Shown here in pieces: positions 2,408-46,793 of a stretch of 64,000 nucleotides of DNA (position 1 is the first letter of the stretch; every line of letters begins with the position of its first letter). The DNA is from Chloroflexota bacterium (GTDB lineage Bacteria; Chloroflexota; UBA11872; VXNJ01). The stretch covers positions 1,871,850 through 1,935,849 of the forward strand of contig OZ252242.1 in the NCBI GenBank assembly GCA_965249595.1. The letters are read 5' to 3'. Below the pieces are notes generated by a model. The model had not been told where the DNA came from. It was given only the letters and a program-made list of their open reading frames with translations, and searched no databases. The translations under genes were made by a program, and so were the position numbers.

Positions 2408-3190
2408 ATGGCCACAATTCCAGCCGCCGGTGACCGACTGGGCAAGACCCTGCGGGTCGATCGCTGGTGGATAGAACCGGTCCGATTCGGCCTGGTTTTT
2501 GGAGCATTTGTCGTCTATGCGAGCTGGGCCCTGCTACAGGGCGCCAACAACGATAACCACATCGCCGAACCATACCTTTCGCCCCTTTATTCGCCGCATT
2601 TTGCCGGCTTGATTTGGCCTGACTGGTGGCCCCAGTTCCTGCGCACCCCGGCTCTACTGATACTCTGGGCGCCGCTGTCCTTCCGCATTACCTGCTACTA
2701 CTACCGGCGCTCATACTACCGCTCGTACTTCCTCTCCCCGCCGGCCTGCGCGGTGGGTCGTCTAAACCTGCCTTACGCCGGTGAGCGGCGGCTGTTGGTA
2801 TTGCAAAACCTGCATCGCTATACGCTCATTTTTGCCCTCGCCCTGGTGGTGATCCTCAGCTACGACGCGGTTGTCGCCTTCTTCTTTGCCGAAGGCTTCG
2901 GCGTCGGCTTGGGCACCCTGATATTGCTCGCCAATGCGGTGGGGATTGCCGGATACACGTTCGGCTGCCATTCGTTGCGGCACCTAGTAGGCGGCCGCAT
3001 TGACTGTTTCTCCTGCTCGCTCGTTAGCCGTAGCCGCGGCCGCGCCTGGCGTTTTCTCACCCGATTTAACGAGCGGCACGGACAGTGGGCCTGGTACTCG
3101 CTGGTATGGGTCGCCCTAGCTGATGCCTACGTGCGATTGGTGGCCACCGGGACAATCACCGACCCGCGCTGGATCATCATCCCGGCATGA
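2408..3190 (+). CDS. Succinate dehydrogenase membrane anchor, mycobacterial Sdh1 (Rv0249c)-like
   Basis: Multi-TM protein with YLSPLYSP, FRITCYYYR and GCHSLRH motifs; overlaps the sdhA start (ATGA). Confidence 0.8.
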   Translation: MATIPAAGDRLGKTLRVDRWWIEPVRFGLVFGAFVVYASWALLQGANNDNHIAEPYLSPLYSPHFAGLIWPDWWPQFLRTPALLILWAPLSFRITCYYYRRSYYRSYFLSPPACAVGRLNLPYAGERRLLVLQNLHRYTLIFALALVVILSYDAVVAFFFAEGFGVGLGTLILLANAVGIAGYTFGCHSLRHLVGGRIDCFSCSLVSRSRGRAWRFLTRFNERHGQWAWYSLVWVALADAYVRLVATGTITDPRWIIIPA

Positions 3191-4989
3191 GCGTCAATCC
3201 CGAACGACTCGCCTACGACGTGTTGGTCATAGGCGCCGGCGGCGCCGGCCTGCGGGCCGCGCTCGCCGCCAGTTCGCTCGGCGCCAAGGTCGGGGTCGTT
3301 TGCAAGTCGCTGCTTGGCAAAGCCCACACCGTTATGGCCGAGGGTGGGATGGCCGCAGCGCTGCGCAACACCGACCCGCGTGACTCCTGGGAGGTCCACT
3401 TTCGCGACACCATGCGCGGCGGGAAACTGCTAAACCAATGGCGCATGGCCCAGATCCATGCCCTGGAGGCTCCCGACCGGGTCCGCGAACTGGAGGCCTG
3501 GGGGGCCGTGTTCGACCGCACTGATGACGGCCTGATCCTGCAGCGAAACTTCGGCGGCCATCGCTATCCCCGGCTGGCTCACGTCGGCGACCGCACCGGG
3601 CTGGAGATGATCCGCACGCTGCAAGATCACGGAATCCACCAGGGTCTCTCCGTTCATATGGAGGTCACCGTCACCAGCCTGCTAATTGACGATGGCCGGG
3701 TAGTGGGCGCCTTTGCTTACCAGCGCTCGGACGGAAAGCTTTTGGCCATCGCCGCCAAATCGGTAATCATCGCCACCGGCGGAGCCTGCCGGGCCTGGGC
3801 CATCAACACCAATTCCTGGGAGGGCACCGGCGACGGGCATGCCCTGGCTTGGCGCGCCGGAGCGGACCTGATCGATATGGAATTCGTCCAGTTCCACCCG
3901 ACCGGAATGGTTTGGCCGCCCTCGGTGCGCGGCATATTGGTCACCGAGGCGGTCCGCGGCGAAGGTGGAGTGCTGCGTAATCGGTCCGGTGAGCGTTTCA
4001 TGTTCGACAACGTGCCGGCGATGTTTGAAGGCGAATTCGCCGAAGACGAAAACGAGGCCCGCCGCTGGCTGGGCGGTGACAAATCAGCCCGTCGCCCACC
4101 CGAATTGCTCACCCGCGACGAGGTGGCAAGGGCGATATTGCGGCAGGTTGGAAACGAGGAGGGGTCACCGCACGGCGGTGTGTTTCTCGACATCGCCTCA
4201 CAGCGGTCGGCAAGCGACATCCGCTCGCGCCTGCCCTCGATGTACCACCAGTTTTCCGAATTGGCGCAGGTCGATATCACTCGCACACCAATGGAAGTCG
4301 GGCCCACCGCGCACTACATCATGGGCGGGATCCGCATCGATCCGGAAACCCAGCAATCAACAATGGCGGGATTGTTCGCTGCCGGCGAGGCCGCCGGTGG
4401 AATGCACGGCGCCAATCGACTGGGCGGCAATTCGTTGACCGACCTCTTGGTATTCGGTAAACGGGCCGGGCAGTTTGCCGCCGAGGCGGCCCTGGCCGCA
4501 GGCGAAATGCCGTCACTTTCAGAATCAATCATCGACGCCGCGACGACCGATGCGATGTCACCGTTTTCGCGCCCCAAAGATGAAAACCCATTCCAATTGC
4601 TCTCATCGCTACAGGAGATGATGGATCAAAAAGTGGGCATCATCCGCCGGGCCAGCGATCTGCAGTCAGCGCTCGGCGATCTTGACCAATACGCCGCGCG
4701 CGCCCAGCGCGCCGGGGTTGCGTCAGGCGGTTACTTTAACGTCGGCTGGCACCAAGTCCTCGATCTTGAAAGCGTATTCACGGTGGCCAGGGCCTCGGCC
4801 ATGGCCGGACTGATGCGCGAAGAGAGCCGGGGCGCCCATACCCGTGATGATCATCCGGCCGCTGAATCGGCCTGGGGCGACCGTTCAGTGATCGTCTCGC
4901 GCGCCGACGACGGTTCAATGTCTGTGCGCACCGAACAACTGGAAAAACCACCGGCCGACTTACAAGCCATCATCGACAGGGATAGTTAG
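3187..4989 (+). CDS. sdhA: Succinate dehydrogenase/fumarate reductase flavoprotein, intact
   Basis: GAGGAG, KAHTVMAEGG (FAD-His), QFHPTG, TEAVRGEGG, RDEVAR, HYIMGG and GANRLGGNSL all present. Confidence 0.95.
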   Translation: MSVNPERLAYDVLVIGAGGAGLRAALAASSLGAKVGVVCKSLLGKAHTVMAEGGMAAALRNTDPRDSWEVHFRDTMRGGKLLNQWRMAQIHALEAPDRVRELEAWGAVFDRTDDGLILQRNFGGHRYPRLAHVGDRTGLEMIRTLQDHGIHQGLSVHMEVTVTSLLIDDGRVVGAFAYQRSDGKLLAIAAKSVIIATGGACRAWAINTNSWEGTGDGHALAWRAGADLIDMEFVQFHPTGMVWPPSVRGILVTEAVRGEGGVLRNRSGERFMFDNVPAMFEGEFAEDENEARRWLGGDKSARRPPELLTRDEVARAILRQVGNEEGSPHGGVFLDIASQRSASDIRSRLPSMYHQFSELAQVDITRTPMEVGPTAHYIMGGIRIDPETQQSTMAGLFAAGEAAGGMHGANRLGGNSLTDLLVFGKRAGQFAAEAALAAGEMPSLSESIIDAATTDAMSPFSRPKDENPFQLLSSLQEMMDQKVGIIRRASDLQSALGDLDQYAARAQRAGVASGGYFNVGWHQVLDLESVFTVARASAMAGLMREESRGAHTRDDHPAAESAWGDRSVIVSRADDGSMSVRTEQLEKPPADLQAIIDRDS

Positions 4990-4991
4990 CC

Positions 4992-5750
4992 ATGGGCAAC
5001 AACGCAACTTTGCGGGTCCAGCGGGGAACCGCCCAAAACACCCACTTTGCCGAATACGAAGTGCCCCTCGCCGAAGGCACGGTTGTGCTTGACGCACTGC
5101 ACTGGGTTCAGCAGAACGCCGATCCTTCATTGGCCTGCCGTTGGAACTGCAAAGCCGGAAAATGCGGATCATGCTCGATGGAAATCAACGGCAAGCCGGC
5201 CCTGGCTTGCATGACCGGATTCCATGACATCGACACGGAGAAACCGGTCAATATCAGCCCGCTCAAGGCTTTTCCGGTCATTTCCGACTTGGTCAGCGAT
5301 GTCAGCTGGAATTATTCCGCCAAGCAATCGATTCGCAAGTTTTCACCGCGCGCTCAGACCCCCGATGAGCACATGGCCGGCGGCTGGAAAATGGCCCAGC
5401 AAGATATCGATCGCGTACAAGAATTTCGAAAGTGCATCGAGTGCTTCCTCTGCCAGGACGTGTGTCACGTCCTGCGCTCCAGCGCCCTCCATGAGCAGTT
5501 TGTCGGCCCGCGCCTGCTGGTCTATGCGGCCGCCCTGGAGATGCACCCGCTCGACGAATTGGACCGGCGCGAGGAGTTGCGGGAGGCCCACGGAGTGGGG
5601 TTTTGCAACATCACCAAGTGCTGCACCGAAGTTTGCCCGGAGGGAATCAAGATCACCGACAACGCCATCATTCCGCTCAAAGAGCGGGTGGCTGATGATG
5701 CCTATGACCCCTTGGCGAAGTTGTACAACAAGATTTTTGGTCGAATCTAG
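4992..5750 (+). CDS. sdhB: Succinate dehydrogenase iron-sulfur subunit, intact
   Basis: CKAGKCGSC...LAC, CIECFLCQDVC and CNITKCCTEVCP give complete ligand sets for all three clusters. Confidence 0.95.
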   Translation: MGNNATLRVQRGTAQNTHFAEYEVPLAEGTVVLDALHWVQQNADPSLACRWNCKAGKCGSCSMEINGKPALACMTGFHDIDTEKPVNISPLKAFPVISDLVSDVSWNYSAKQSIRKFSPRAQTPDEHMAGGWKMAQQDIDRVQEFRKCIECFLCQDVCHVLRSSALHEQFVGPRLLVYAAALEMHPLDELDRREELREAHGVGFCNITKCCTEVCPEGIKITDNAIIPLKERVADDAYDPLAKLYNKIFGRI

Positions 5751-5784
5751 CGCGGTTCCCGCACAATCAGGAGAACTTCGGGCG

Positions 5785-6711
5785 TTAGATTCCCATCACA
5801 TCGACTAGTTCGCGAACCGAAGCCGCCGAGCGCCGCAATCCGTCCAACTCTTCGTCGGTCAGCTGGAAGTCCATCACCGCTTCAGCGCCGCCGGCTCCCA
5901 GTTTTACGAGGACTCCGACGACAGTGTCGTTGATGCCAAATTCGCCCTCAAGCAGCACGGCGCAGGGGTAAAGACGATTTTGGTCTAACAAGATCGAATC
6001 GACCATCATGGCGCAGGCCTCGCCGGGGGCCTCATATGCCCCGCCGATCTTCATATGCTCGACAATCTCGCCGCCGCCATTGCGGGTCCTATCAACGATG
6101 GCCGTCAACCGCTCGGCCGATATCAGCGATCGCACCGGCATGCCGGCCACGGTGGTGTAGCTGGGGACCGGCACCATCGTGTCGCCGTGACCACCGAGCA
6201 CAAACCCGGTTATGTCAGTAGGGGAAACACCAAGTTCCCAGGCCAAAAAGGTGCGGTAACGGGAAGAATCCAGGATGCCGCCCTGGCCGATGACCCGTTC
6301 CTTGGGCAGACCGGAGACCCGCAACGCCAGTTGGGTCATGGCGTCCATCGGATTGGAGAGGATGATCAATATCGTCTCCGGCGATCGTGTCACCAGTTCG
6401 CGCGTGACCTGCTCAACGATCGCCTTGTTGGCCAGCAACAGATCGTCGCGGCTCATGCCCGGCTTGCGCGGAAATCCCGAGGTAATGACACAAACCTGTG
6501 AACCGGCGGTCTCGTCGTAGGAGTTGGTGCCAAGGATGTTGGGAGGATACCCGCACAGTGATCCGGCGTGATTGAGATCTAGCGCCTTACCCTGCGCCAG
6601 ACCCTCCACGATGTCGATCAAAACGACGTCGGCATATCCACGCTCGGCCACCCTGCGGGCGGTCGAGCCGCCGGTGGCGCCGGCGCCAACAACTGTTACT
6701 TTAGGTCGCAT
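5785..6711 (-). CDS. mdh: Malate dehydrogenase (LDH-like)
   Basis: GAGATG, RKPGMSRDDLL, SNPMDAM, LDSSR and GGHGD motifs. Confidence 0.95.
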   Translation of the reverse strand: MRPKVTVVGAGATGGSTARRVAERGYADVVLIDIVEGLAQGKALDLNHAGSLCGYPPNILGTNSYDETAGSQVCVITSGFPRKPGMSRDDLLLANKAIVEQVTRELVTRSPETILIILSNPMDAMTQLALRVSGLPKERVIGQGGILDSSRYRTFLAWELGVSPTDITGFVLGGHGDTMVPVPSYTTVAGMPVRSLISAERLTAIVDRTRNGGGEIVEHMKIGGAYEAPGEACAMMVDSILLDQNRLYPCAVLLEGEFGINDTVVGVLVKLGAGGAEAVMDFQLTDEELDGLRRSAASVRELVDVMGI

Positions 6712-6769
6712 TCACATATCCGGTTCTGGGGCAATTGCGCTAGTGCCCCGGCTGAAAAAACTGTCTTCA

Positions 6770-7483
6770 TTAGCGCGGGTCGGAAAAACCATTGACCGCG
6801 GCTGAGCGTTTCAACTTATCAATCTGGGCAAATGGAGCAAGCGAATAGGGACAGGGATCGCCAACGATGGATTCTGAATTGCAGGCCCAGACGCCGTCGC
6901 GACCAACCGCCAATTGCATTCGCTCGCGATCGAAATCGTCGCGCGTATCGGCCGCCAATCGGTAGGTCTTGAGCAGGAAACGGGCTCCGATGAAGTCGGA
7001 TGGCGGATGGCGCAGGGCTCCATCGCAAATCCCGCACATGTTGCAATATTCGCTGCGTTGCAGCCGGTCCAACTGTTCGCGGGTCATCTCCGTCGGCCGG
7101 CCCAAATCAACGCTTTCGGTGCGCTGCAGCCAGGGCCGCAGCTGGGCGATGCGGTTGGAGGCTATATCCGAATCGACCACCAGGTCGACGATTACCGCGT
7201 GGTTAGCCAGCGGCCCAATCCGGACTTCATCGTCCCCGGTTGGCAAAGGTTCACGCACCGGGAGCACCGGCCGCCCATTTAGGGCAACCGCCCCGATACC
7301 GGAAAAACCGCCGGGTTCGGCCTCGCGAAAGCGCAGACTGCAGTCTTGTTCATCACGGATTTGAATGAGCGCGTCCTGGACGGTCATCGCCGGTACCCGC
7401 CTGACCGAAAAGGATTGCCAGGTCGGGGACAATTCCAATTCGGGATCGAACCGGGAGATGCTCAGCACTGCCAGTGAAATCAT
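6770..7483 (-). CDS. Degenerate SdhB/FrdB-like Fe-S protein
   Basis: SdhB-like RFDPE, TVQDAL and VIVDLVVD; only CNMCGIC, one GVWAC Cys and the final CP are retained; ATG overlaps the upstream TGA. Confidence 0.8.
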   Translation of the reverse strand: MISLAVLSISRFDPELELSPTWQSFSVRRVPAMTVQDALIQIRDEQDCSLRFREAEPGGFSGIGAVALNGRPVLPVREPLPTGDDEVRIGPLANHAVIVDLVVDSDIASNRIAQLRPWLQRTESVDLGRPTEMTREQLDRLQRSEYCNMCGICDGALRHPPSDFIGARFLLKTYRLAADTRDDFDRERMQLAVGRDGVWACNSESIVGDPCPYSLAPFAQIDKLKRSAAVNGFSDPR

Positions 7484-9042
7484 GCTGCCACTCCCGCTTC
7501 CTGCGGGCTCAGGGATGCGGTTTGGTCGGTCACCACGGCCGCCCCTTGCTGCCGCAAAACTATGTGCATCGCTTCTTGGTCGTCGCCCTCCGGGTGGTCC
7601 GAGCGACGGTGACATCCACGTGATTCGGTTCGACTTTGGGCACCGGCGATGACGGCGCTGGCGGTTATTGCGGCCCGCCGCAGTTCGATCAACCGAACCA
7701 ATTCGAGGTTGTAGTGCGACCCATTCCAGGCCGGGGCGGCACGAGCGGCCGAGTCGCTGATTTCGGCGACCAATAGAGCGGCCTCGCCGAGACCATCGGC
7801 GCTGCGGGAGAGACCGACAAAGTCCGACATCACCGCCCTTAGGCGGCCAAACAGGGCGCCCGGATCGACCGAATCGTCGCCCCTGAAAGCCAGTTGCAGC
7901 CTGGCCTGGGCGTCTATCCGGGCCGATTCGGGCAGGTTTGCCGGCCGCGGCGCAATCCCGTTGGCGACGGATTTGGCGGAATCGACCAGGTCAAGAATCG
8001 CGTTGCCGGGCAGCAAGCCGCCACCAAGCAATGGCGAGGCGGCCGCCTCGCCGGCTACATAAAGCCCATCGACGCCGGTGCAGGGGTTAACTCCGCCAAG
8101 GGCGAAATGAACTGACGGGACCAGCGGGGATTTGAGGTCATCGCCGAGCAGTGCCGCAATTTCAGGAGCGACCAATTCAATTTCATCGGCAAAGGGGGAA
8201 AAATCGGCAGCCGGTGACGAACTCTCTTCAATTGCCAGGGCCAAAGACCCATGGGTCAATCCGGGCGCTGCGTCCAGCCCGGTGATTCCGCGTCCGGCCA
8301 TCGCCAGCGCGCCGCCAATGGCTGCGCCTTTGACTGAATCAGACGGGTGATCGATCCCGGCGGCCCATTCGATCATTTCCATATCGGCCAGTTGGGAACC
8401 GGCCGTTAAGGCCAGCGCCTGGCTGGTTCCGACGGCAAAACCCAGATTGTCGCTTACAGCAAAGAGGCCGCCCAGCGAACCATCGGTTAGCAACACGTTG
8501 CCGCTGGCGAAACCCTGCGCCAGGCCGGAGCGGATGTTGTAAGCAGTCAGGCCGCAGATTCCCGATTCGTCAGTGTGGAGATCCAGTGGCACCCATTCAG
8601 TAAAGACGTCGATCGAATAGGCGGCGACCCGGTCAATTAACGCATTGAGCACCGCCCGTCCGCTCCACCATCCGGCGGCCACGGTGTAGGCCACGCTGTT
8701 ATTGGCAAGTTTGATTTGGGCCAGACCGGCATCGTCGGAACGGGCAAATGCCGTTCCCATGTGCTCAAGTTCGACAACTACGGCGGCGGCGGCGGAACCG
8801 GCCGACTCTATCTGCTGCGGTTGTGCCAAACCCGCGCCGGCGGCGGTGCTGTCGGCAATGAAAGCCGCCATCTGATCGTCGCCGCTGGGGGCGTTGATCC
8901 CGTCGCGCAGATTGCCGTCGGGCGACTGGGCCAGAGCGGTCCGGCTGACGATGGCTACGTTTAGTTGCGCCTCAGCGGCGGCGATTGCGGCGCGTAGTCC
9001 GGCGATCCCGCCGCCCACGACAACCAGGTCGTACTCGATCAA
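7480..9042 (-). CDS. Degenerate SdhA/FrdA-like FAD-binding protein
   Basis: GGGIAG Rossmann motif, DMEM, HFALGG, GLYVAGE and ESRGCH present; catalytic His/Arg residues mostly replaced. Confidence 0.8.
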   Translation of the reverse strand: MIEYDLVVVGGGIAGLRAAIAAAEAQLNVAIVSRTALAQSPDGNLRDGINAPSGDDQMAAFIADSTAAGAGLAQPQQIESAGSAAAAVVVELEHMGTAFARSDDAGLAQIKLANNSVAYTVAAGWWSGRAVLNALIDRVAAYSIDVFTEWVPLDLHTDESGICGLTAYNIRSGLAQGFASGNVLLTDGSLGGLFAVSDNLGFAVGTSQALALTAGSQLADMEMIEWAAGIDHPSDSVKGAAIGGALAMAGRGITGLDAAPGLTHGSLALAIEESSSPAADFSPFADEIELVAPEIAALLGDDLKSPLVPSVHFALGGVNPCTGVDGLYVAGEAAASPLLGGGLLPGNAILDLVDSAKSVANGIAPRPANLPESARIDAQARLQLAFRGDDSVDPGALFGRLRAVMSDFVGLSRSADGLGEAALLVAEISDSAARAAPAWNGSHYNLELVRLIELRRAAITASAVIAGAQSRTESRGCHRRSDHPEGDDQEAMHIVLRQQGAAVVTDQTASLSPQEAGVAA

Positions 9043-9143
9043 GCGGCAGGGCCTCGGTCTGCTGATTGGGACAAGGGGGTCAAGGGCAACAAGTTAGTCA
9101 GTTTAGAAACCCTTAAAAACCCACGAGTTGGATTTTAAATTGC

Positions 9144-9176
9144 GACTGGCGGCTCGATCGCCCGGCGACGCCAATC
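9144..9176 (-). terminator. Stem-loop immediately after sucD
   Basis: Minus-strand GATTGGCG...CGCCAGTC stem with only a weak U tract. Confidence 0.35.
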
Positions 9177-10036
9177 TAGATGCGACTGGCAATCAGATCT
9201 CCCACCTGGTCGGGATAGTCGGCGACCGGAACGCCAACCTGGCGTAGTGCCGCAATCTTGTCGGCAGCCGCGCCCGAGCCGCCCGATACGATGGCCCCGG
9301 CATGCCCCATGCGGCGCTCGGGCGGGGCCGCCCGACCGGCGATGAATGACACGACCGGTTTGGTGACTTGTTGGGCGATGAATTCGGCGGCATTCTCCTC
9401 GTCCTGACCACCGATTTCGCCGATAAGGACGACGGCGTCGGTATCGGGATCGTCCTCAAAGAGCTCCAGGGCATCGTTGAAATTGGTCCCGATGAGTGGA
9501 TCACCGCCGATCCCCAGGCACAAGCCCTGGCCGATGTCACGGTTACTTAACGCTTGAATAACCTCATAGGTAAGGGTCCCGGAGCGCGAAACCACGCCGA
9601 TCCGGCCGGGCATGGCAATCGAACCCGGGATGATCCCCAGCTTGGTTTGGCCGGGCAGGATCAGGCCCGGGCAGTTTGGCCCGATGACCCGCGCCCCGCG
9701 GGCCGCGGCAAAGGAGAGCATCCGCGCCGAATCGAGGACCGGTATGCCCTCGGTTATGGCAACGATCAGCGAAATGCCGGCCGCGGCCTGTTCGCAAACC
9801 GCATCAGCGGCCGCAAATGCGGGCACAAACACCACTCCGGCCCGCGCACCGGAGTCGGCAACCGCGTCGCGCACACTGTCAAACACTGGCACGCCGTTTT
9901 CAGTTGTGCCACCTCGCCCCGGAACCACTCCCGAAACCACGTTGGCTCCGTAATCGAGCATTAGTCGCGTATGGAAGGATCCTTGGCGGCCTGTTATGCC
10001 CTGCACCAGAATCGGCGTGGCAGCGTCTACCAGCAA
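9176..10036 (-). CDS. sucD: Succinyl-CoA synthetase alpha subunit
   Basis: [30 protein letters not shown] and RMGHAGA (phospho-His); TTG start with GGAG. Confidence 0.95.
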
Positions 10037-10039
10037 GAT

Positions 10040-11173
10040 CTAGGCTCCGCTTGCGGCAATTGCCGCCTGCACCGCGCTGATCATGCCGCGGTGGGCTGAG
10101 ATCCCGGCAGCCCGCAAAATCGCGAGCCCCTCCTGTTCGTTGGTGCCCACCAAGCGGGTTACCAACGGCACCGAGCGGTCCAGGCTGGCCAGGGCCGCCG
10201 TTATCCCGCGGGCCACATCGTCACAGCGGGTGATACCACCGAATATGTTGACCAGCACGACTTTCACGCCGGGATCGGAGAGTATGATCTCCATCGCCTG
10301 GCGAACCTGGGCGGCATCGGCGCCGCCACCGACATCGAGGAAGTTGGCCGGCTGGCCGCCTTCGCTGACGATCACGTCCAGCAACGCCATTGCCAATCCG
10401 GCGCCGTTGACCATACAACCGATGGATCCGTCCAACTTCACGTAGGCAATGCCCGCGGCGCGGGCCGCTGCCTCCTGTGCCGTCTCCTCTTCCGGATTGC
10501 GCAGGGTGGCCAGGTCGGGGTGCCGGAACAGCGCCGAGTCGTCTAACGTGATCTTGGCGTCGATTGCCGACAGTTCCCCCTGGGCAGTGACCACCAGCGG
10601 GTTGATCTCAACCAAAGAGGCATCGTGATCCTCCAAGCAGCGCACCGTTTGGGCCGCGATATTGGCAAAGCGGGACACCAAATCCCCGGGGATGCCCAGG
10701 TCGTAGCCAAGTTGACGGCCCGCATATGGGGCCAGACCCTGGCCGGCGGGGCAATAAACGCGTTTTATCGCCGCCGGCTGCTCAGCGGCAACCTGTTCAA
10801 TGTCGACCCCTCCGGCGGCGGAGGCCATGACCATGACCTGCGCGCGGGCCCGATCCGGCAGGGCTGCCAAGTAGAACTCGGAGGCGATTTCAACCTGTTC
10901 GGCAACCATCAAGCGGTCAACCGAGTGCCCGCCAATTGAAAGCCCCAAGATTTCGGCGGCGGCGGCGCTGGCCGCGGGCGGATCGTCAGCCAGGCGGATA
11001 CCGCCAGCCTTGCCGCGCCCGCCGGAGAGGACTTGTGCTTTAACGACCACCGGGCGACCCAATTGAGCCGCCGCCGCCGCCGCCTCGGCCGGAGTACCCA
11101 CGACCACGGCGTTAGGAACCGGCAGGCCGCTTGCCGAGAGCAGCAGCCGGGATTGATGTTCGTGCAACTTCAA
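10040..11173 (-). CDS. sucC: Succinyl-CoA synthetase beta subunit
   Basis: KLHEHQ, KAQVLSGGRGKAGG, EINPL, NGAGLAM, NFLDVGGG and NIFGGI; likely TTG start at 11173. Confidence 0.95.
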   Translation of the reverse strand: MKLHEHQSRLLLSASGLPVPNAVVVGTPAEAAAAAAQLGRPVVVKAQVLSGGRGKAGGIRLADDPPAASAAAAEILGLSIGGHSVDRLMVAEQVEIASEFYLAALPDRARAQVMVMASAAGGVDIEQVAAEQPAAIKRVYCPAGQGLAPYAGRQLGYDLGIPGDLVSRFANIAAQTVRCLEDHDASLVEINPLVVTAQGELSAIDAKITLDDSALFRHPDLATLRNPEEETAQEAAARAAGIAYVKLDGSIGCMVNGAGLAMALLDVIVSEGGQPANFLDVGGGADAAQVRQAMEIILSDPGVKVVLVNIFGGITRCDDVARGITAALASLDRSVPLVTRLVGTNEQEGLAILRAAGISAHRGMISAVQAAIAASGA

Positions 11174-11347
11174 AGTGGGCAAAACTCGGATGCTAAAGGG
11201 CTTTCCAACGTAAGGCCCAACTATTTTTAGTTTCGACGATCCATGGCCCAATTGGCCGCCATGCCGCCCGGGCTTGGGGTAAGCCGTTCCCTAGAATCGC
11301 CCGACCCTACGTTACGCCTCGGGCGCGTAGCAGAGCAGGTGGTGGCC

Positions 11348-13630
11348 ATGAGTGAAAACGGAATCGAAAGCACCGCTGCCGCGGCGATTTATCAGAAACT
11401 GGCCGCAAACCTGGAAGTGATCCGGGAACGTCTGGGACGGCCGTTGACATTGGCCGAAAAGATTCTTTACGGGCATGCCGACGACCCCGCCAATATCGCC
11501 CTGGGCCCCGGCCAATGGATCATGTTGCGCCCCGACCGAGTGGCGCTACAGGACGTGACCGGGCAGATGGCCCTCCTCCAATTCCGCCTGGCGGGACAGC
11601 AAAGGACTCAGGTCCCCACCACCGTTCACTGCGACCACCTCATTCGGGCCCAGATCGGCGCCGATGAAGATCTGGCCCGCTCGCGGCTGGAGAACGATGA
11701 GGTGTTTACGTTCCTGCGGTCGGCGTCGGCGCGCTACGGCCTGGGATTCTGGGAACCGGGATCCGGAATCATTCACCAAGTGCTGCTCGAAAATTACGCG
11801 GTTCCCGGAACGATGATCATTGGCACCGATTCCCATACGCCCAATGCCGGCGGACTTGGCGCTTTGGCAATCGGCGTCGGCGGCGCCGATGCGGTTGACG
11901 TGATGGTGGGCTTCCCGTGGGAAGTGCAATCCCCGTCGGTCTTGGGAGTTCGCCTAACCGGCCAACTCTCGGGCTGGTCAGCCCCCAAGGACGTGATCCT
12001 CAAAGTCGCCGGCATCCTAACCACCAAGGGCGGCACCAACCGGATCGTGGAATACTTCGGGCCTGGTTGCGAATCGATATCGGCCACCGGCAAAGCCACC
12101 ATAACCAACATGGGGGCCGAACTCGGTGCCACCACCTCGGTGTTTCCCTACGATCGGCGGATGGAAACCTATCTGCGATCGACCGAACGCGCGGTGGCGG
12201 CCGAACAAGCCAACGCCAACCGCTCCCTAGTTACCGCCGATCCGGAAACCGCCGCTGAGCCCGGAAGCTTCTACGACCAAGTGATCGAGATCGACCTATC
12301 CGCTCTTGAGCCGCATGTCGTGGGCCCGCACCGTCCCGACCGGGCCCGTCCGCTTGCCGACCTGGTGAACGAGATCGAGGAGGAAAATTTTCCCACCGAA
12401 CTCTCCGCGGTACTAATTGGCAGCTGTACCAATTCCTCCTATGAGGACATCTCACGGGCGGCCGCCGTGGCCCGCCAGGCATCGGCCGCCGGCAAGACGG
12501 TGGCCACGCCGTTGTTGGTTACCCCGGGATCGGAAATGGTTCGGGCCACCTTGGAACGCGACGGGCAGATCGAGGCTTTGGAGGCGATTGGGGCCACCGT
12601 GCTGGCCAATGCCTGCGGTCCCTGCATCGGCCAGTGGCGGCGCGCAGATCCGGATGATCCACACGCCCCGCCCCCGGCAGCCAATTCGATCGTTACGTCA
12701 TTCAATCGCAACTTTCCGCGGCGCAATGACGGCAACCCCGAAACGCTAAATTTCATAACCAGCCCGGAGATCGCGGTTTCGATGGCGATCGGCGGGCGGT
12801 TGGGTTTTGACCCGCGGCGCGACAAGACCGCCGACGGGTTCGAACTGGACGCGCCGGGTCCCGCTCCGGAGATTCCGGCCCGGGGATTTTTGCAGCGTGG
12901 GGCCGGATATGTAGCCCCCAACGGTGCGGGCAGTGAAGTAAATGTTGACCCCGACAGTCGTCGACTGGAGTTGCTCAAACCGTTTGCCGAACGCACTCCC
13001 GCCCAATTCCAGAATTTGGCCGTGCTGCTAAAGGCGACCGGTCAATGCACCACCGACCACATCTCGGCGGCCGGACCCTGGCTACGATTTCGCGGACACC
13101 TAAACAACATTTCAGACAACATGTTCATCGGCGCCAACAACGCTTTCAGCCCGACCGCGGGAACGGGTTACAACCCCTTGACCGGCGAGACCGGCGAGAA
13201 ATTACCCGACATCGCCCGGCAACTTAAAGCCGCCGGCCAGGGATGGGTTGCAATTGGCGATGAGAACTACGGTGAGGGATCGTCGCGTGAACATGCTGCC
13301 ATGTCACCGCGATTGCTCGGCGCAGCGGTTGTCATCACCCGCTCCTTCGCCCGGATTCACGAGACAAATCTGAAGAAACAGGGCGTCTTGGCGCTGACGT
13401 TTAAAGATCAATCGTCCTATGAGTTAATTCGCCAAGGCGACTCAATTTCAATCGAGGGGATAGATTCGCTGGCACCCGGCTCGGCGTTGACAGCCTGTCT
13501 GCAACATTCCGATGGGTCTACTGATCGCTGCGCGGTCTCGCACACCCTCAACTCCGAACAGATCGCTTGGCTTTGGGCGGGATCGGCCCTAAACGTAATC
13601 CGCAGTCAGGCCGCGTCCGCTTCAGGCTAG
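11348..13630 (+). CDS. acnA: Aconitate hydratase, mitochondrial-type
   Basis: LTLAEKILYGH, DRVALQD, HCDHLI, DSHTPNAGG, GSCTNSS, NACGPCIG, SFNRNF and NYGEGSSREHAA; likely ATG at 11348. Confidence 0.93.
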   Translation: MSENGIESTAAAAIYQKLAANLEVIRERLGRPLTLAEKILYGHADDPANIALGPGQWIMLRPDRVALQDVTGQMALLQFRLAGQQRTQVPTTVHCDHLIRAQIGADEDLARSRLENDEVFTFLRSASARYGLGFWEPGSGIIHQVLLENYAVPGTMIIGTDSHTPNAGGLGALAIGVGGADAVDVMVGFPWEVQSPSVLGVRLTGQLSGWSAPKDVILKVAGILTTKGGTNRIVEYFGPGCESISATGKATITNMGAELGATTSVFPYDRRMETYLRSTERAVAAEQANANRSLVTADPETAAEPGSFYDQVIEIDLSALEPHVVGPHRPDRARPLADLVNEIEEENFPTELSAVLIGSCTNSSYEDISRAAAVARQASAAGKTVATPLLVTPGSEMVRATLERDGQIEALEAIGATVLANACGPCIGQWRRADPDDPHAPPPAANSIVTSFNRNFPRRNDGNPETLNFITSPEIAVSMAIGGRLGFDPRRDKTADGFELDAPGPAPEIPARGFLQRGAGYVAPNGAGSEVNVDPDSRRLELLKPFAERTPAQFQNLAVLLKATGQCTTDHISAAGPWLRFRGHLNNISDNMFIGANNAFSPTAGTGYNPLTGETGEKLPDIARQLKAAGQGWVAIGDENYGEGSSREHAAMSPRLLGAAVVITRSFARIHETNLKKQGVLALTFKDQSSYELIRQGDSISIEGIDSLAPGSALTACLQHSDGSTDRCAVSHTLNSEQIAWLWAGSALNVIRSQAASASG

Positions 13631-14113
13631 ATCGTCGGGCTCAAATATCCAGCGATCGGCGACACGCTCGAACTCCAATAATTCGCTCGCGTCGAAATAA
13701 ATCGCCAACTCGCGTTCGGCGCTCTCGGTTGAATCGGCGGCATGGACTAGATTGCGCAGCGGAGAAAGGGCCAGATCGCCGCGAATAGTGCCGGCATCAG
13801 CATCACCGGGGCGGGTTGCCCCAACCATGCGGCGAACTGAGGAGACCGCTGACGGGCCGGCTAGAACCATCGCCAATGCCGGTCCCGATGTGAGATGGTC
13901 GCACAGCCCGGCGTAGAAAAATTTGCCCTCATGTTCGGCGTAGTGGGTCTGGGCCTGACTCCGGCTGGGCAGCAGCAGCTTTAAGGCCAGCAAACGGTAC
14001 CCGCGCCGGTCAAAGCGAGAGAGGATTTCGCCGGCCAGCGACCTCTGCAGGGCATCCGGTTTCAGCAATACAAATGTGCGTTCAAGCATCCCGAAGATTC
14101 CTAGTAGTCTCAT
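13622..14113 (-). CDS. ndk: Nucleoside diphosphate kinase
   Basis: ERTFVLLKPD, GTIRGD and NLVHAAD (catalytic His); an alternative start lies at 14089. Confidence 0.95.
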   Translation of the reverse strand: MRLLGIFGMLERTFVLLKPDALQRSLAGEILSRFDRRGYRLLALKLLLPSRSQAQTHYAEHEGKFFYAGLCDHLTSGPALAMVLAGPSAVSSVRRMVGATRPGDADAGTIRGDLALSPLRNLVHAADSTESAERELAIYFDASELLEFERVADRWIFEPDDLA

Positions 14114-15321
14114 TCGCCTAAATTTTCTTCGGTCGGAGCCCCGTCCGCCGGGGCGGGCGCCACGGCCGCGTCGGCGCGGTGCCGACTGTATGTCAACTCA
14201 GCCAACTCGGTAAGCCCCGCCCGGGTGAGCTCATCACCCAATCGGGAGAGCAAATCCGGCGGGGTTTGGGCGAGCAATTCTTCGTCCAGCTGATTACCGG
14301 CAAACTGCAAAACGATCGCTACCTGCGGCCAATTTTCAGTAGCGATCAGATTGGGAAGTTCACCGGCATTTGATTCGACCCGCGGCAGTGATTCATCTGA
14401 TTCGCCCACGTCATTGGTCGTCGGCTGAGGCAGCAGCCGCTCACTAGGAGGCACAAATTCTTCTTCGGCGGTCACATCATGTAGTTCAGATTGCGGCGGG
14501 GCCGGAACGGCGCTCGAATTTCCGCCCAGGATGTCGTCGACGGCGGCCACAAGTGCGACCGGCACCGGCAGTGGCTCAGCATCCGGCAAGCGGATGCGTG
14601 AAACCGGGAGACTCTCAAATAGAGTGCGGGCCAGCAAATATTCGGCATCGTACTGAACGCTGGCCGCCAATTGCTCGGCGGACGCATCAAGCTGTCCCAG
14701 TTCGGCGTAGGCCTGGGCGGCCAGGAGCATCGCCGGCAGGCAATCGGCGTAGTTGTCAGCAAGCCGCTCGCACGTCCGCAGGACGCTGTGCGCGCGCCCG
14801 GTTTGGAGCTGAATGGAGGCAACCGGGATGCCAAGGGCTGGCCAGTGTTCCAACTCACGGGCGTCATCCAGATATCGTTCGGCCAATAGCAATCGGCCGG
14901 CCCGCAGATGCATAAAGCCGATGCCGGCACGGCTTTGCGCAGGTTCGATCGCGCATTGCCGGGCGAGCCGCACAACTCCCTCGCTGACCGGGTCGATGGC
15001 AACTAGCTGGGCCAGGTCGTCGGCCAGGGTCGTGGCCCCTTCACCCAGCGCCCGGCGGGCCTGCAATGAAAGCAGATTGGCCGGCCCAGCAAGCGGGTCA
15101 ATATCGAGCACGAAACGGGCGTCGGAAAGGGCAGCCGAAACGCGGCCCCGGGCCAGGCGTAGACGCGCCCGCTCCAGACGGGCGGGGCAGTTCATTGGCC
15201 AGGCCACCGTCAGGACGGCCAACAATTTGGCGGCCGATGAGAATTGCCGTTGCCGGCGAAGCCGGCGAGTTCGGTCAATGATCGCCGACGGTAATAGCAG
15301 AGGATCAGCCGAACGGTCCAT
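14110..15321 (-). CDS. TPR-like repeat protein, function unknown
   Basis: Ala/Leu-rich helical repeats and an acidic Pro-rich C-terminal region; coupled to ndk by an ATGA overlap. Confidence 0.6.
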   Translation of the reverse strand: MDRSADPLLLPSAIIDRTRRLRRQRQFSSAAKLLAVLTVAWPMNCPARLERARLRLARGRVSAALSDARFVLDIDPLAGPANLLSLQARRALGEGATTLADDLAQLVAIDPVSEGVVRLARQCAIEPAQSRAGIGFMHLRAGRLLLAERYLDDARELEHWPALGIPVASIQLQTGRAHSVLRTCERLADNYADCLPAMLLAAQAYAELGQLDASAEQLAASVQYDAEYLLARTLFESLPVSRIRLPDAEPLPVPVALVAAVDDILGGNSSAVPAPPQSELHDVTAEEEFVPPSERLLPQPTTNDVGESDESLPRVESNAGELPNLIATENWPQVAIVLQFAGNQLDEELLAQTPPDLLSRLGDELTRAGLTELAELTYSRHRADAAVAPAPADGAPTEENLGE

Positions 15322-34759: not shown

Positions 34760-34832
34760 AGCCCACATCCGGAATTGAACCGGAGACCTCATTCTTACCA
34801 AGAATGCGCTCTTCCTACTGAGCTATGTGGGC
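34760..34832 (-). tRNA. tRNA-Thr(GGT)
   Basis: GCCCACA acceptor, CATTC-TT GGT AA-GAATG anticodon arm, TTCAATT T-loop. Confidence 0.95.
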
Positions 34833-34929: not shown

Positions 34930-35075
34930 CTACAAGGAGAGGCCCCAGTCGGACCCCCGTTTAACGGGGGCCACGAGCGGGGAATGCGGTTCGATTCCGC
35001 AGCGGACGCGCCACCGTGATTGACCGGGTGCTGGGACTGCCAGCTTCCGTCATGAGCCGGGCTACCGGGCCGGGG
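34930..35075 (+). ncRNA. Cobalamin riboswitch
   Basis: GGGAA-TGCGG TTCGATT CCGCA, GCCACCGTGA and GAGCCGGGCTACC match the B12-element core; lies upstream of btuFCD. Boundaries approximate. Confidence 0.85.
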
Positions 35076-35209
35076 TCTTCGCCCAAACGCCGTTCGCGCA
35101 AGCAATCTAGACATTTTTTTCAGATCTCGACGGCCGGGCGCGCCGGCGGCGTTGGCGTGCTCGTCGCCAGGGCTGCAACATGCAAACCCTCCTTCAACCT
35201 CTCTAGGCC

Positions 35210-36151
35210 ATCGCCGGTCGAACGGCATTTCTGCTGACGCTGGCCGGATTTTTGCTAATGGCCTGTTCACCATTCGCCGACCCGGACGATTCAGCGGGTC
35301 AGGGCGAGACAGTCGATTCAACCGGCAAGACCGTTACGGCCCCGCGCGCGCCCGATCGACTGATCTCGCTGGCCCCGTCGGCAACCGAGTTGCTGGTGCT
35401 GCTCAACGCCGGCGAGCTATTGGTCGGAGTCGATGATTACAGTCCGCTTGAGGGCCTCTCCGGCGAAGTCGCCAGGGTTGGGACCTTTCCACCGGATTAC
35501 GAACTGATCGCCAGCTTGGACCCCGATCTGATCATCGGAGCGTTCATTACCCCGGCGGAGCATGTCGACCGCCTGGAATCACTCGGCTTTCCGGTCTTTA
35601 TTGCCGACAGCCGTTCGGTTGAGGGAATTCCGGCAGCCTTAGAGGCCTTGGCCGGCGCAGTGGACCGGGAAGACGCCTACGCCGAGATCGCCGATTCGTT
35701 CAACGACCGAATGGCGGCAATCGCCGACGCCTCGTCAACCGACGGCGACGCGCCGACCATCTATTGGGAGATAGACGCTACCGACCCGGCGCGGCCATTT
35801 GTGGCCGGCCCGGGCTCGCTGGCCAACGACGTTATTCGTTTGGCTGGCGGCGTGAACGTTTTCGCCGATCTGACCGATCCATATCCACAGGTATCGCTTG
35901 AAGCGGTGTTGGCCCGCAATCCCGACCTGATCGTCCTCGGCAACGCCCCCTGGGGCGAGAGCATCGCCACCCTGGGCGGGCGCCCCGGTTGGGCTAGCCT
36001 GCGAGCGATTTCCAATCGCCAGGTCTTGGAGCTGTCCGAATCGCAGGCCGATGCCGCATCCCGGGCCACGCCGGCGATGCTTGACCTGATCGAATACATG
36101 GCCGATTCACTCTCAGCGGCGCAGGTCAAATCATTACCCGCCGCGGCCTGA
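35210..36151 (+). CDS. btuF: Cobalamin/iron-siderophore ABC substrate-binding lipoprotein
   Basis: RLISLAPSATE, LVGVDDYS, LDPDL and EAVLARNPD; lipobox LMAC. Start unresolved because of an in-frame TAG at 35204. Confidence 0.8.
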   Translation: MAGRTAFLLTLAGFLLMACSPFADPDDSAGQGETVDSTGKTVTAPRAPDRLISLAPSATELLVLLNAGELLVGVDDYSPLEGLSGEVARVGTFPPDYELIASLDPDLIIGAFITPAEHVDRLESLGFPVFIADSRSVEGIPAALEALAGAVDREDAYAEIADSFNDRMAAIADASSTDGDAPTIYWEIDATDPARPFVAGPGSLANDVIRLAGGVNVFADLTDPYPQVSLEAVLARNPDLIVLGNAPWGESIATLGGRPGWASLRAISNRQVLELSESQADAASRATPAMLDLIEYMADSLSAAQVKSLPAAA

Positions 36152-42395: not shown

Positions 42396-42489
42396 TGGCG
42401 GAGGAGGCGGGATTCGAACCCGCGACCCGGCTTTAAACCGGGTAACCGCTTAGCAGGCGGCCGCACTAGACCAACTATGCGACTCCTCC
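42396..42489 (-). tRNA. tRNA-Ser(GCT)
   Basis: GGAGGAG acceptor, GCT anticodon, long variable arm, encoded CCA. Confidence 0.95.
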
Positions 42490-42507
42490 ATCCCCGATTG
42501 CGAGGGG

Positions 42508-42591
42508 CGGAGGGGGTGGGATTCGAACCCACGAACCTCATCGGTTAGTGGTTTTCAAGACCACCGCCTTAAACCACTCGGCCACCCCTCC
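42508..42591 (-). tRNA. tRNA-Ser(TGA)
   Basis: GGAGGGG acceptor, GTGGT-CT TGA AA-ACCAC anticodon arm, variable arm. Confidence 0.95.
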
Positions 42592-46721: not shown

Positions 46722-46793
46722 GCCGACGTGGCTCAATGGTAGAGCGGGGCTTTCGTAAAGCTCAGGTTGTGGGTTCGACTCCCACCGTCGGCT
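46722..46793 (+). tRNA. tRNA-Thr(CGT)
   Basis: GCCGACG acceptor, GGGCT-TT CGT AA-AGCTC anticodon arm, TTCGACT T-loop. Confidence 0.93.

Follow-up and report, generated by a model that had tools for sequence, protein, structure and literature searches.

Why would a bacterium keep, within an operon for the tricarboxylic acid (TCA) cycle, two genes that resemble the flavoprotein and iron–sulfur subunits of succinate dehydrogenase (Sdh) when a complete Sdh is encoded next door? This question is raised by a 64,000-nucleotide (nt) stretch of the genome of a Chloroflexota bacterium (assembly GCA_965249595.1, contig OZ252242.1, positions 1,871,850 to 1,935,849), which we call the window, where adjacent minus-strand genes encode an SdhA-like flavoprotein homolog and an SdhB-like protein, here named A' and B'. 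Judged from its sequence, the pair is without the residues for succinate binding and oxidation or for fumarate reduction, and it is under purifying selection and not decaying. Lost catalytic residues combined with purifying selection would make it a pseudoenzyme, one that works like nothing characterised and is by descent an SdhAB, most probably of type E. We know of no dead, paired SdhA and SdhB described before, and full-text literature searches turned up no paper that describes a degenerate SdhA/SdhB pair, in agreement with a first-pass annotation of the window that knew of no such module.

Loss of active-site residues in A'

To read residue states in A', we aligned it with PDB chains and with the intact paralog, using the residue numbers and roles of Escherichia coli SdhA and SdhB, which we take to be established complex II knowledge. 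The equivalents of H242, T254, E255, R286, and R399 are gone in all A' orthologs, and the motifs found in their places are given in Table 1. The residue at the proton-shuttle R286 position is not an arginine, with a local alignment that is uncertain because of a deletion there, and about 60 residues are missing from the capping domain. Other elements are retained: His312 lies within SVHFALGG and is nearly invariant in the A' family, AGEAA (residues 330–334) and a C-terminal ESRGCH (473–478, of the pattern ESRGxHxRxD) are present, and the GxGxxG (GGGIAG) and AGE (AGEAA) motifs are invariant across 14 A' sequences. A' probably still binds the adenosine diphosphate (ADP) part of flavin adenine dinucleotide (FAD). 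Closer to the flavin, the AxQGG, ATGG, and TGDG motifs are altered, the first of them to a derived N-x-R-[DE]-G that is common to the clade of locus L073 (see below), and these changes make flavin occupancy uncertain.

The position of the histidine that binds FAD covalently (H45) is a separate case. The first-pass annotation named this histidine among the requirements of a soluble SdhAB, but its loss is not a family trait, because His is found there in 13 of the 14 aligned A' sequences (AHHDGN). The window protein alone is without it (Pro41, 8920–8922). Among the outgroups, the position is Met in L073, Gly in L075, and Asn in three SdhA proteins, P0016 (from a type E operon) and its close relatives P0017 and P0018 (loci L081, 105–1724, and L072, 7001–8623). 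These three deviate from the canonical set at H45 only, keeping the other catalytic residues, and may bind FAD non-covalently.

The overall architecture of A' appears to have survived these losses. Pfam detects FAD_binding_2 (residues 5–227 only) and Succ_DH_flav_C. An AlphaFold2 (AF2) model built from a 70-sequence alignment (predicted local distance difference test, pLDDT, 90.4; predicted template modelling score, pTM, 0.92) predicts the whole four-domain SdhA fold, and the top ~40 Foldseek matches to this model are nearly all complex II or fumarate reductase (Frd) flavoproteins, with a query TM-score (TMq) of up to 0.89. The best curated match, TIGR01812, scores 193 bits and is below its cut-off of 567, and A' scores under 160 bits against every NCBIfam equivalog, for which the cut-offs are 450–1100 (SdhA, FrdA, and NadB models).

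A single remaining cluster motif in B'

None of the four [2Fe-2S] cysteines (C-x4-C-x2-C-x11-C) is found in B' or in any ortholog. Of the three [3Fe-4S] cysteines, window B' has one and the orthologs none, and B' is without the [3Fe-4S]/quinone-site region, where its loop is shortened. The invariant cysteines of the B' family are exactly C147, C150, C153, and C211, the four [4Fe-4S] ligands, which are also kept in two outgroups, and B' probably carries one [4Fe-4S] cluster. Window B' uniquely has two extra cysteines, Cys48 (7340–7342) and Cys201 (6881–6883), one of which is at the first [3Fe-4S] ligand position. In the geometry of complex II, the distance from the flavin to the central cluster exceeds that of physiological electron transfer when the [2Fe-2S] relay is absent. 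With the relay gone and flavin and cluster too distant, the remaining cluster is most likely structural or sensory.

Pfam detects only Fer2_3 in B'. At 127 bits (cut-off 88), B' clears TIGR00384, a broad subfamily model, and it falls below all equivalog and other subfamily cut-offs (for example PRK05950, 124 bits against 228). All NCBIfam equivalog matches of the pair are far below cut-off, and it matches no characterised family whose own site is intact. The description of the pair as catalytically stripped in the first-pass annotation is right for the succinate site and the electron relay, which are lost, but goes too far in that the dinucleotide motifs of A' and all four [4Fe-4S] ligands of B' are invariant.

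Current annotations do not reflect these losses. NCBI names A' "FAD-binding protein" and B' either "2Fe-2S iron-sulfur cluster-binding protein" or "hypothetical protein"; the B' orthologs MXX99785.1, MXW29061.1, and others carry the 2Fe-2S name despite having none of the four [2Fe-2S] ligand cysteines, and going by these ligands the name is wrong. Some pipelines label A' a succinate dehydrogenase flavoprotein. With such annotations, metabolic reconstructions of these Chloroflexota could count a second Sdh or Frd that does not exist.

Conservation and purifying selection

Homologs of A' and B' were sought in a database of 5.8 billion proteins, which yielded about 14 A' clusters (519–545 amino acids (aa), with 50–53% identity to window A') and nine B' clusters, each exactly 237 aa. 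We retrieved six orthologous loci (L003, L004, and L068–L071), making seven with the window. All six share the arrangement acn / sucC-sucD-A'-B'-mdh / SdhB-SdhA-anchor with every frame intact, and the comparison of lost and kept residues that the first-pass annotation had proposed showed the same catalytic residues and cysteines to be missing in every ortholog. The 4-nt overlap between A' and B' is present in six of six, with a B' start that varies among ATG, GTG, and TTG, and neither stops nor frameshifts were found in A' or B' in the seven loci, which span ~50% amino-acid divergence. The window lineage is the outlier of the family, its A' being 50–53% identical to the other orthologs, which are 72–87% identical among themselves.

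Ratios of nonsynonymous to synonymous substitution rates (dN/dS) were calculated by the Nei–Gojobori method for the six non-window genomes, at a mean dS of about 0.5–0.8. The mean dN/dS was 0.184 for A' and 0.107 for B', with ranges of 0.14–0.23 and 0.08–0.16 over pairs with unsaturated dS, compared with means of 0.136 for SdhA, 0.119 for SdhB, 0.164 for sucC, 0.093 for sucD, 0.074 for mdh, and 0.129 for the anchor. By domain, every part of A' and B' was at 0.09–0.35, including the shrunken capping domain of A' at 0.20.

These values bear directly on whether the pair could simply be decaying pseudogenes or an artefact of assembly or annotation. The missing catalytic residues, the absence of 7 of the 11 cluster cysteines, and the faster evolution of A' compared with intact SdhA are in keeping with that explanation, but it is contradicted by seven loci free of stops and frameshifts, by a dN/dS of 0.1–0.2, by a B' of exactly 237 aa in nine clusters, by the kept start/stop overlap, and by identical A' sequences in independent assemblies. 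The identical A' is on a short-read contig assembled independently from a different sample (L002), which rules out an assembly artefact. Neutral decay is essentially excluded, and we consider decay or artefact to be extremely improbable. The proposal in the first-pass annotation that the pair was retained by selection is thus borne out by intact orthologs and a dN/dS of 0.08–0.23.

The degenerate pair has a narrow distribution, being confined to uncultured genomes of Chloroflexota type that form three small clusters, and sample names suggest that these are marine or sponge-associated. Scanning a genome collection with the A' profile recovered only L003 and L004 as true orthologs, the other hits being NadB or unrelated Rossmann N-termini. 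Scanning metagenome contigs with the B profile contributed a single further locus, L076; of the other matches, L077 is a duplicate of L073, and both L078 and L079 are distant.

Probable origin in a type E enzyme

An exhaustive HMMER search of 1.84 billion representatives with the B' profile found only two clusters linking B' to ordinary SdhB, P0130 (234 bits) and P0131 (183 bits), the next match being at 143 bits. In a neighbor-joining (NJ) tree of the B proteins, B' grouped with P0130/L076 and P0131 (bootstrap 100/100/99), and the sister of this group was P0137, the 314-aa SdhB of an SdhA-SdhB-CCG operon. The NJ tree of the A proteins was congruent (A' 100; with L073/L076 100; with L075 and P0016–P0019 72). 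Both the sister B protein P0137 and the A-clade members P0016–P0019 are in SdhA-SdhB-CCG(-small open reading frame (ORF)) operons, and fumC is directly upstream of P0017, a relative of P0016. The nearest intact relatives of A'B' are such type E SdhA-SdhB-CCG operons.

Arranged by their sequences, these loci form a graded series from type E SdhABE(F) to a two-cluster, anchor-less AB in a TCA operon and then to a one-cluster AB without an active site. The type E stage is represented by L081 (P0016; A-B-CCG-small ORF) and L080 (P0137; A-B-CCG), with B proteins of 319 aa and 314 aa that have three clusters. The two-cluster stage is L075 (P0131), a 3.2-Mb circular contig with the order acn / icd-sucC-sucD-A-B-mdh-fumC and no adjacent Sdh. 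In its A protein (563 aa), H45 is lost, N and P replace H242 and R399, respectively, and T254, E255, and R286 are kept; its B protein (252 aa) has complete [2Fe-2S] and [4Fe-4S] sets without the distal cluster. A one-cluster sister clade (L073, L074, and L076; P0130; L076 is from Tara) has the pair at the equivalent operon position, fully shown for L073. Here A (547 aa) has lost H45, T254/E255, R286, H354, and R399, and B (236 aa) has a complete ligand set for [4Fe-4S] only; between L073 and L076, dN/dS is 0.13 for A and 0.06 for B, with dS at least 1, so that purifying selection acts on this pair too. The one-cluster window clade (the window, L003, L004, and L068–L071) has an A of 520 aa and a B of 237 aa with [4Fe-4S] ligands only, beside an Sdh1-type Sdh.

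Read along this series, the losses of the third cluster and of R399 are older than the window clade. The series also suggests that the central [4Fe-4S] cluster is needed for the SdhB fold and that the other two clusters are dispensable. More broadly, it illustrates how incoming isoenzymes can displace the head of a respiratory enzyme that is nevertheless kept for another purpose.

The complete succinate dehydrogenase beside the pair

The complete anchor-SdhA-SdhB operon that the first-pass annotation placed at 2408–5750 was confirmed by family cut-offs passed for both catalytic subunits and by the match of the anchor to a PDB chain (Table 1), and alignments found all canonical motifs in it. 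In all window-clade loci that were examined, this Sdh is the direct neighbour of the pair and converges on mdh. In L073 and L074, the complete Sdh convergent with mdh is of the FrdABCD type. Two unrelated complete Sdh types therefore hold the equivalent position in two clades (L073, 9851–13168 on the minus strand; window, 2408–5750 on the plus strand), the first FrdABCD-like with two small anchors and the second Sdh1-like with a single 260-aa anchor. A different complete Sdh type facing the pair in the sister clade is consistent with repeated replacement of an enzyme that was long resident there. The claim that the original Sdh of the operon was displaced by the Sdh1-type enzyme is consistent with the type E kinship of the pair, the L075 operon, and the two Sdh types, but the order of events is not proven.

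The constant proximity of a complete Sdh raises the possibility that A'B' serves as an alternative or decoy head, in which one or both of A' and B' bind to intact SdhA or SdhB or compete for the anchor, and in this way control or aid the assembly of the active complex. Besides the adjoining Sdh in all examined window-clade loci and in L073 of the sister clade, the almost invariant former [2Fe-2S] loop of B', which is at the A/B interface in complex II, would fit such contacts. We nevertheless regard this as improbable. The neighbouring Sdh is of the Sdh1 or FrdCD type depending on the clade and the pair descends from a third type, E, so specific docking to such unrelated anchors is unlikely; in addition, B' has a shortened loop and no [3Fe-4S]/quinone-site region, and the L075 locus has no adjoining Sdh at all.

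Gene order, leader, and transcription unit

ORF calls and Pfam confirm the minus-strand order sucC-sucD-A'-B'-mdh reported in the first-pass annotation, with an A' of 520 aa and a B' of 237 aa, and the sequence itself bears out its reading of two open frames coupled by an ATGA overlap. The junction reads ...GCAGC ATGA TTT..., in which the TGA stop and the ATG share 4 nt, with GGGAG upstream. As reported there, no membrane anchor lies between the two Sdh-like frames; the sucD-A' gap of 133 nt and the B'-mdh gap of 58 nt leave no space for an anchor gene and no ORF fits either. Neither a membrane anchor nor a CCG docking subunit gene accompanies the pair, which is flanked by sucD and mdh in all seven loci, with an insertion next to sucD in two of them (see below).

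Table 1. Positions in the window of the pair, its motifs, and the neighbouring genes
Feature	Position	Strand	Details
Membrane anchor, Mycobacterium smegmatis Sdh1 SdhC type	2408–3190	+	260 aa; matches 7d6v_C, E = 2e-48
Intact SdhA	3187–4989	+	600 aa; NF005866, 906 bits (cut-off 819); every catalytic motif
Intact SdhB	4992–5750	+	252 aa; NF009052, 372 bits (cut-off 256); all three cluster motifs
mdh (malate dehydrogenase)	5785–6711	-	Final gene of the run
B', SdhB-like protein	6770–7483	-	237 aa from ATG; open frame
B' DPC211PY, fourth [4Fe-4S] ligand (Cys-Pro)	6845–6859	-	Invariant
B' C147-x2-C150-x2-C153, three [4Fe-4S] ligands	7025–7045	-	Next Cys ([3Fe-4S] ligand) replaced
B' former [2Fe-2S] loop DCSLRFREAEPGGFSGIGAV (residues 47–66)	7286–7345	-	All four ligand Cys replaced; loop near-invariant in family
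ATGA overlap, A' stop and B' start	7480–7483	-	Sequence read
A', SdhA-like flavoprotein homolog	7480–9042	-	520 aa; TTG start; open frame
A' LGGGLLPGN (339–347) replacing HGANRLGGN	8002–8028	-	R399 = Leu343; alignment
A' SVHFAL (310–315)	8098–8115	-	His312 = H354 equivalent, kept; alignment
A' IGGALA (242–247) replacing (V/I)TEAxR	8302–8319	-	T254/E255 = Gly243/Gly244; alignment
A' EWAAGI (225–230) replacing QFHPTG	8353–8370	-	H242 equivalent = Ala227; alignment
A' QSPDGN (39–44)	8911–8928	-	Pro41 at covalent-FAD His (H45) position; orthologs AHHDGN; then R-D-G replacing Q-G-G
A' GGGIAG dinucleotide-binding loop (10–15)	8998–9015	-	Family-invariant
sucD-A' intergenic leader	9043–9175	-	133 nt
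sucD (succinyl-CoA synthetase alpha)	9176–10036	-	ORF call and Pfam
sucC (succinyl-CoA synthetase beta)	10040–11173	-	Called as 377 aa; longest ORF to 11251; ORF call and Pfam
Aconitase (acn)	11243–13630	+	Divergent from sucC; conserved TCA neighbourhood

About 100 nt directly upstream of A' are conserved in the orthologs L003, L004, and L068–L071 (consensus CCAATTTAAGATT..CGTGGGGTGGCCGGCCGGCGCAGCCGG...), with two predicted hairpins and little covariation; the window's own copy of this leader is divergent. Two loci have insertions between sucD and A': a 95-aa HTH_3 gene in L069 (7176–7463, minus strand) and a 6.8-kb island in L070 (1869–7563). The L070 island contains a fused AriAB (PARIS-like) ATPase-DUF4435 gene (PADLOC AriAB, E = 2e-57), a PDC-S57 candidate (T5orf172/MUG113), a truncated type II methyltransferase-like ORF, and two family-less ORFs, and looks like a defence islet within the TCA operon. 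A'-B'-mdh is intact with the conserved leader even in L069 and L070, and since the leader is kept despite these insertions, A'-B'-mdh probably has its own promoter and leader. A scan for consensus promoters and terminators over 5600–11500 found nothing above shuffled expectation, and no Rfam family matched the pair region at the gathering threshold.

A proposed role for the pair

We propose that A'B' is what survives of the catalytic head of an old Sdh without an anchor, which derived from type E and would have belonged to a TCA operon of the form icd-sucCD-sdhAB-mdh-fumC. It would first have lost the CCG-type docking subunits, the C-terminal extension of B, and the distal cluster, and then the [2Fe-2S] cluster together with the dicarboxylate-binding and proton-shuttle residues, with succinate oxidation being taken over by a separate, complete Sdh next door. 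What remains would be a translationally coupled, predicted heterodimer with putative FAD (its ADP part) in A' and a putative [4Fe-4S] cluster in B', co-expressed with mdh and usually sucCD as a non-catalytic subunit that scaffolds or regulates TCA or Sdh function. We give this role about even chances. If the pair does regulate or scaffold TCA enzymes, central metabolism would be controlled in a way that is new. A more specific form of the proposal, which we consider unlikely, would make A'B' the first bacterial complex II pseudoenzyme, in which a lone [4Fe-4S] cluster, perhaps together with FAD, would sense redox state, oxygen, or iron or provide a scaffold, and would thereby control or organise SucCD, Mdh, and the active Sdh; such a pseudoenzyme would have evolved from a displaced type E enzyme by exaptation in several steps.

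Several points weigh against a non-catalytic role of this kind. The nonsynonymous rate of A' is ~2.4 times that of intact SdhA, which indicates weaker constraint, and the altered AxQGG, ATGG, and TGDG motifs mean that FAD binding by A' is not assured. The trees are NJ only, with few sequences, and the AF2 model of B', made from a 9-sequence family alignment, is uninformative (pLDDT 42). New invariant polar residues (D42, N44, and R46, with D47 in most) are also found at the position of the flavin edge in SdhA, and D42, N44, R46, and D47 could equally mark a new active site.

Such a site would be expected if A' were a neofunctionalised flavoenzyme that binds FAD and carries out another redox reaction at a rebuilt site with a soluble acceptor, leaving B' as a structural partner only. 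Purifying selection on all A' domains, including the capping domain at a dN/dS of 0.20, is consistent with this, as are the invariant N-x-R-[DE]-G that replaces A-x-Q-G-G beside the flavin position and is shared with the L073 clade, the kept His312, and the His at the covalent-FAD position in most orthologs. L075 lost only the ligands of the distal carboxylate (H242 and R399) and kept T254, E255, and R286, a pattern like that of a switch in substrate. In the window clade, however, the proton-shuttle Arg and both T/E residues were lost, several FAD-contact motifs are changed, and no characterised family was matched; moreover, electrons would have no path to B' without [2Fe-2S], so the constraint on B' and its cluster (dN/dS 0.11) would need a separate explanation. 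We therefore view a new flavoenzyme as possible but doubtful, and continue to prefer a scaffold or regulator. The position between sucD and mdh also led us to consider A'B' as a replacement for fumarase. Class I fumarases use a [4Fe-4S] cluster, but B' keeps four Cys ligands, not three, and fumC is near the relatives in L072 and L075, and we set this candidate aside.

Other features of the window

A cobalamin riboswitch (Rfam RF00174, 43 bits against a gathering threshold of 31.5) is at 34930–35087 on the plus strand, upstream of an ORF starting at 35252. The window has five tRNA genes (2206–2278, 34760–34832, and 42399–42591 on the minus strand; 46722–46793 on the plus strand), one of which is directly upstream of the Sdh anchor gene. 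A 403-aa ORF without a Pfam match (14110–15321, minus strand) is between ndk and a PfkB kinase, a position kept in the orthologous loci, and one of its orthologs has a weak TPR_19 match.

Comparison with known systems

Pseudoenzyme subunits and off-pathway iron–sulfur clusters, such as cluster N7 in NuoG of complex I, are kept for structure or regulation. The likeness of A'B' to these is in concept only, with no homology. Sdh1 of M. smegmatis (PDB 7D6V) represents the family of the complete enzyme at 2408–5750 and not that of A'B': B' matches 7d6v_B at only E = 5e-07, compared with 1e-16 to 1e-22 for other SdhB chains. L-aspartate oxidase, NadB, resembles A' in having an SdhA fold without covalent flavin or an anchor, and A' scores similarly on NadB and SdhA models. 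Unlike A', which lost its residues and is in a TCA context, NadB still has the catalytic H/R residues, is not partnered by an SdhB, and is found with nadA and nadC; locus L005 from the A' profile scan was rejected on these grounds, as it encodes a NadB with NadB motifs beside nadC and nadA.

Two systems are closer. The catalytic head of complex II (E. coli 1NEK and the mitochondrial enzyme) shares the four-domain fold with A' (TMq 0.81–0.88), and Fer2_3 and the [4Fe-4S] pattern with B', which passed TIGR00384. A'B' differs from it in having no H242, T254, E255, R286, or R399, no [2Fe-2S] or [3Fe-4S] ligands, and no anchor, with the FAD His also missing in window A'. Type E succinate:quinone oxidoreductases (SQOR), SdhABE(F), are found in Sulfolobus and Acidianus, and the sdhABE of Wolinella and Campylobacter is a methylmenaquinol:fumarate reductase (PMC2754724, PMC2680327). 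Compared with these, A'B' is without the CCG subunit, the ~80-aa C-terminal extension of SdhB, the distal and [2Fe-2S] clusters, and the active-site residues, but type E enzymes are its closest intact kin in both trees and share with it the order of A then B and the absence of a transmembrane anchor.

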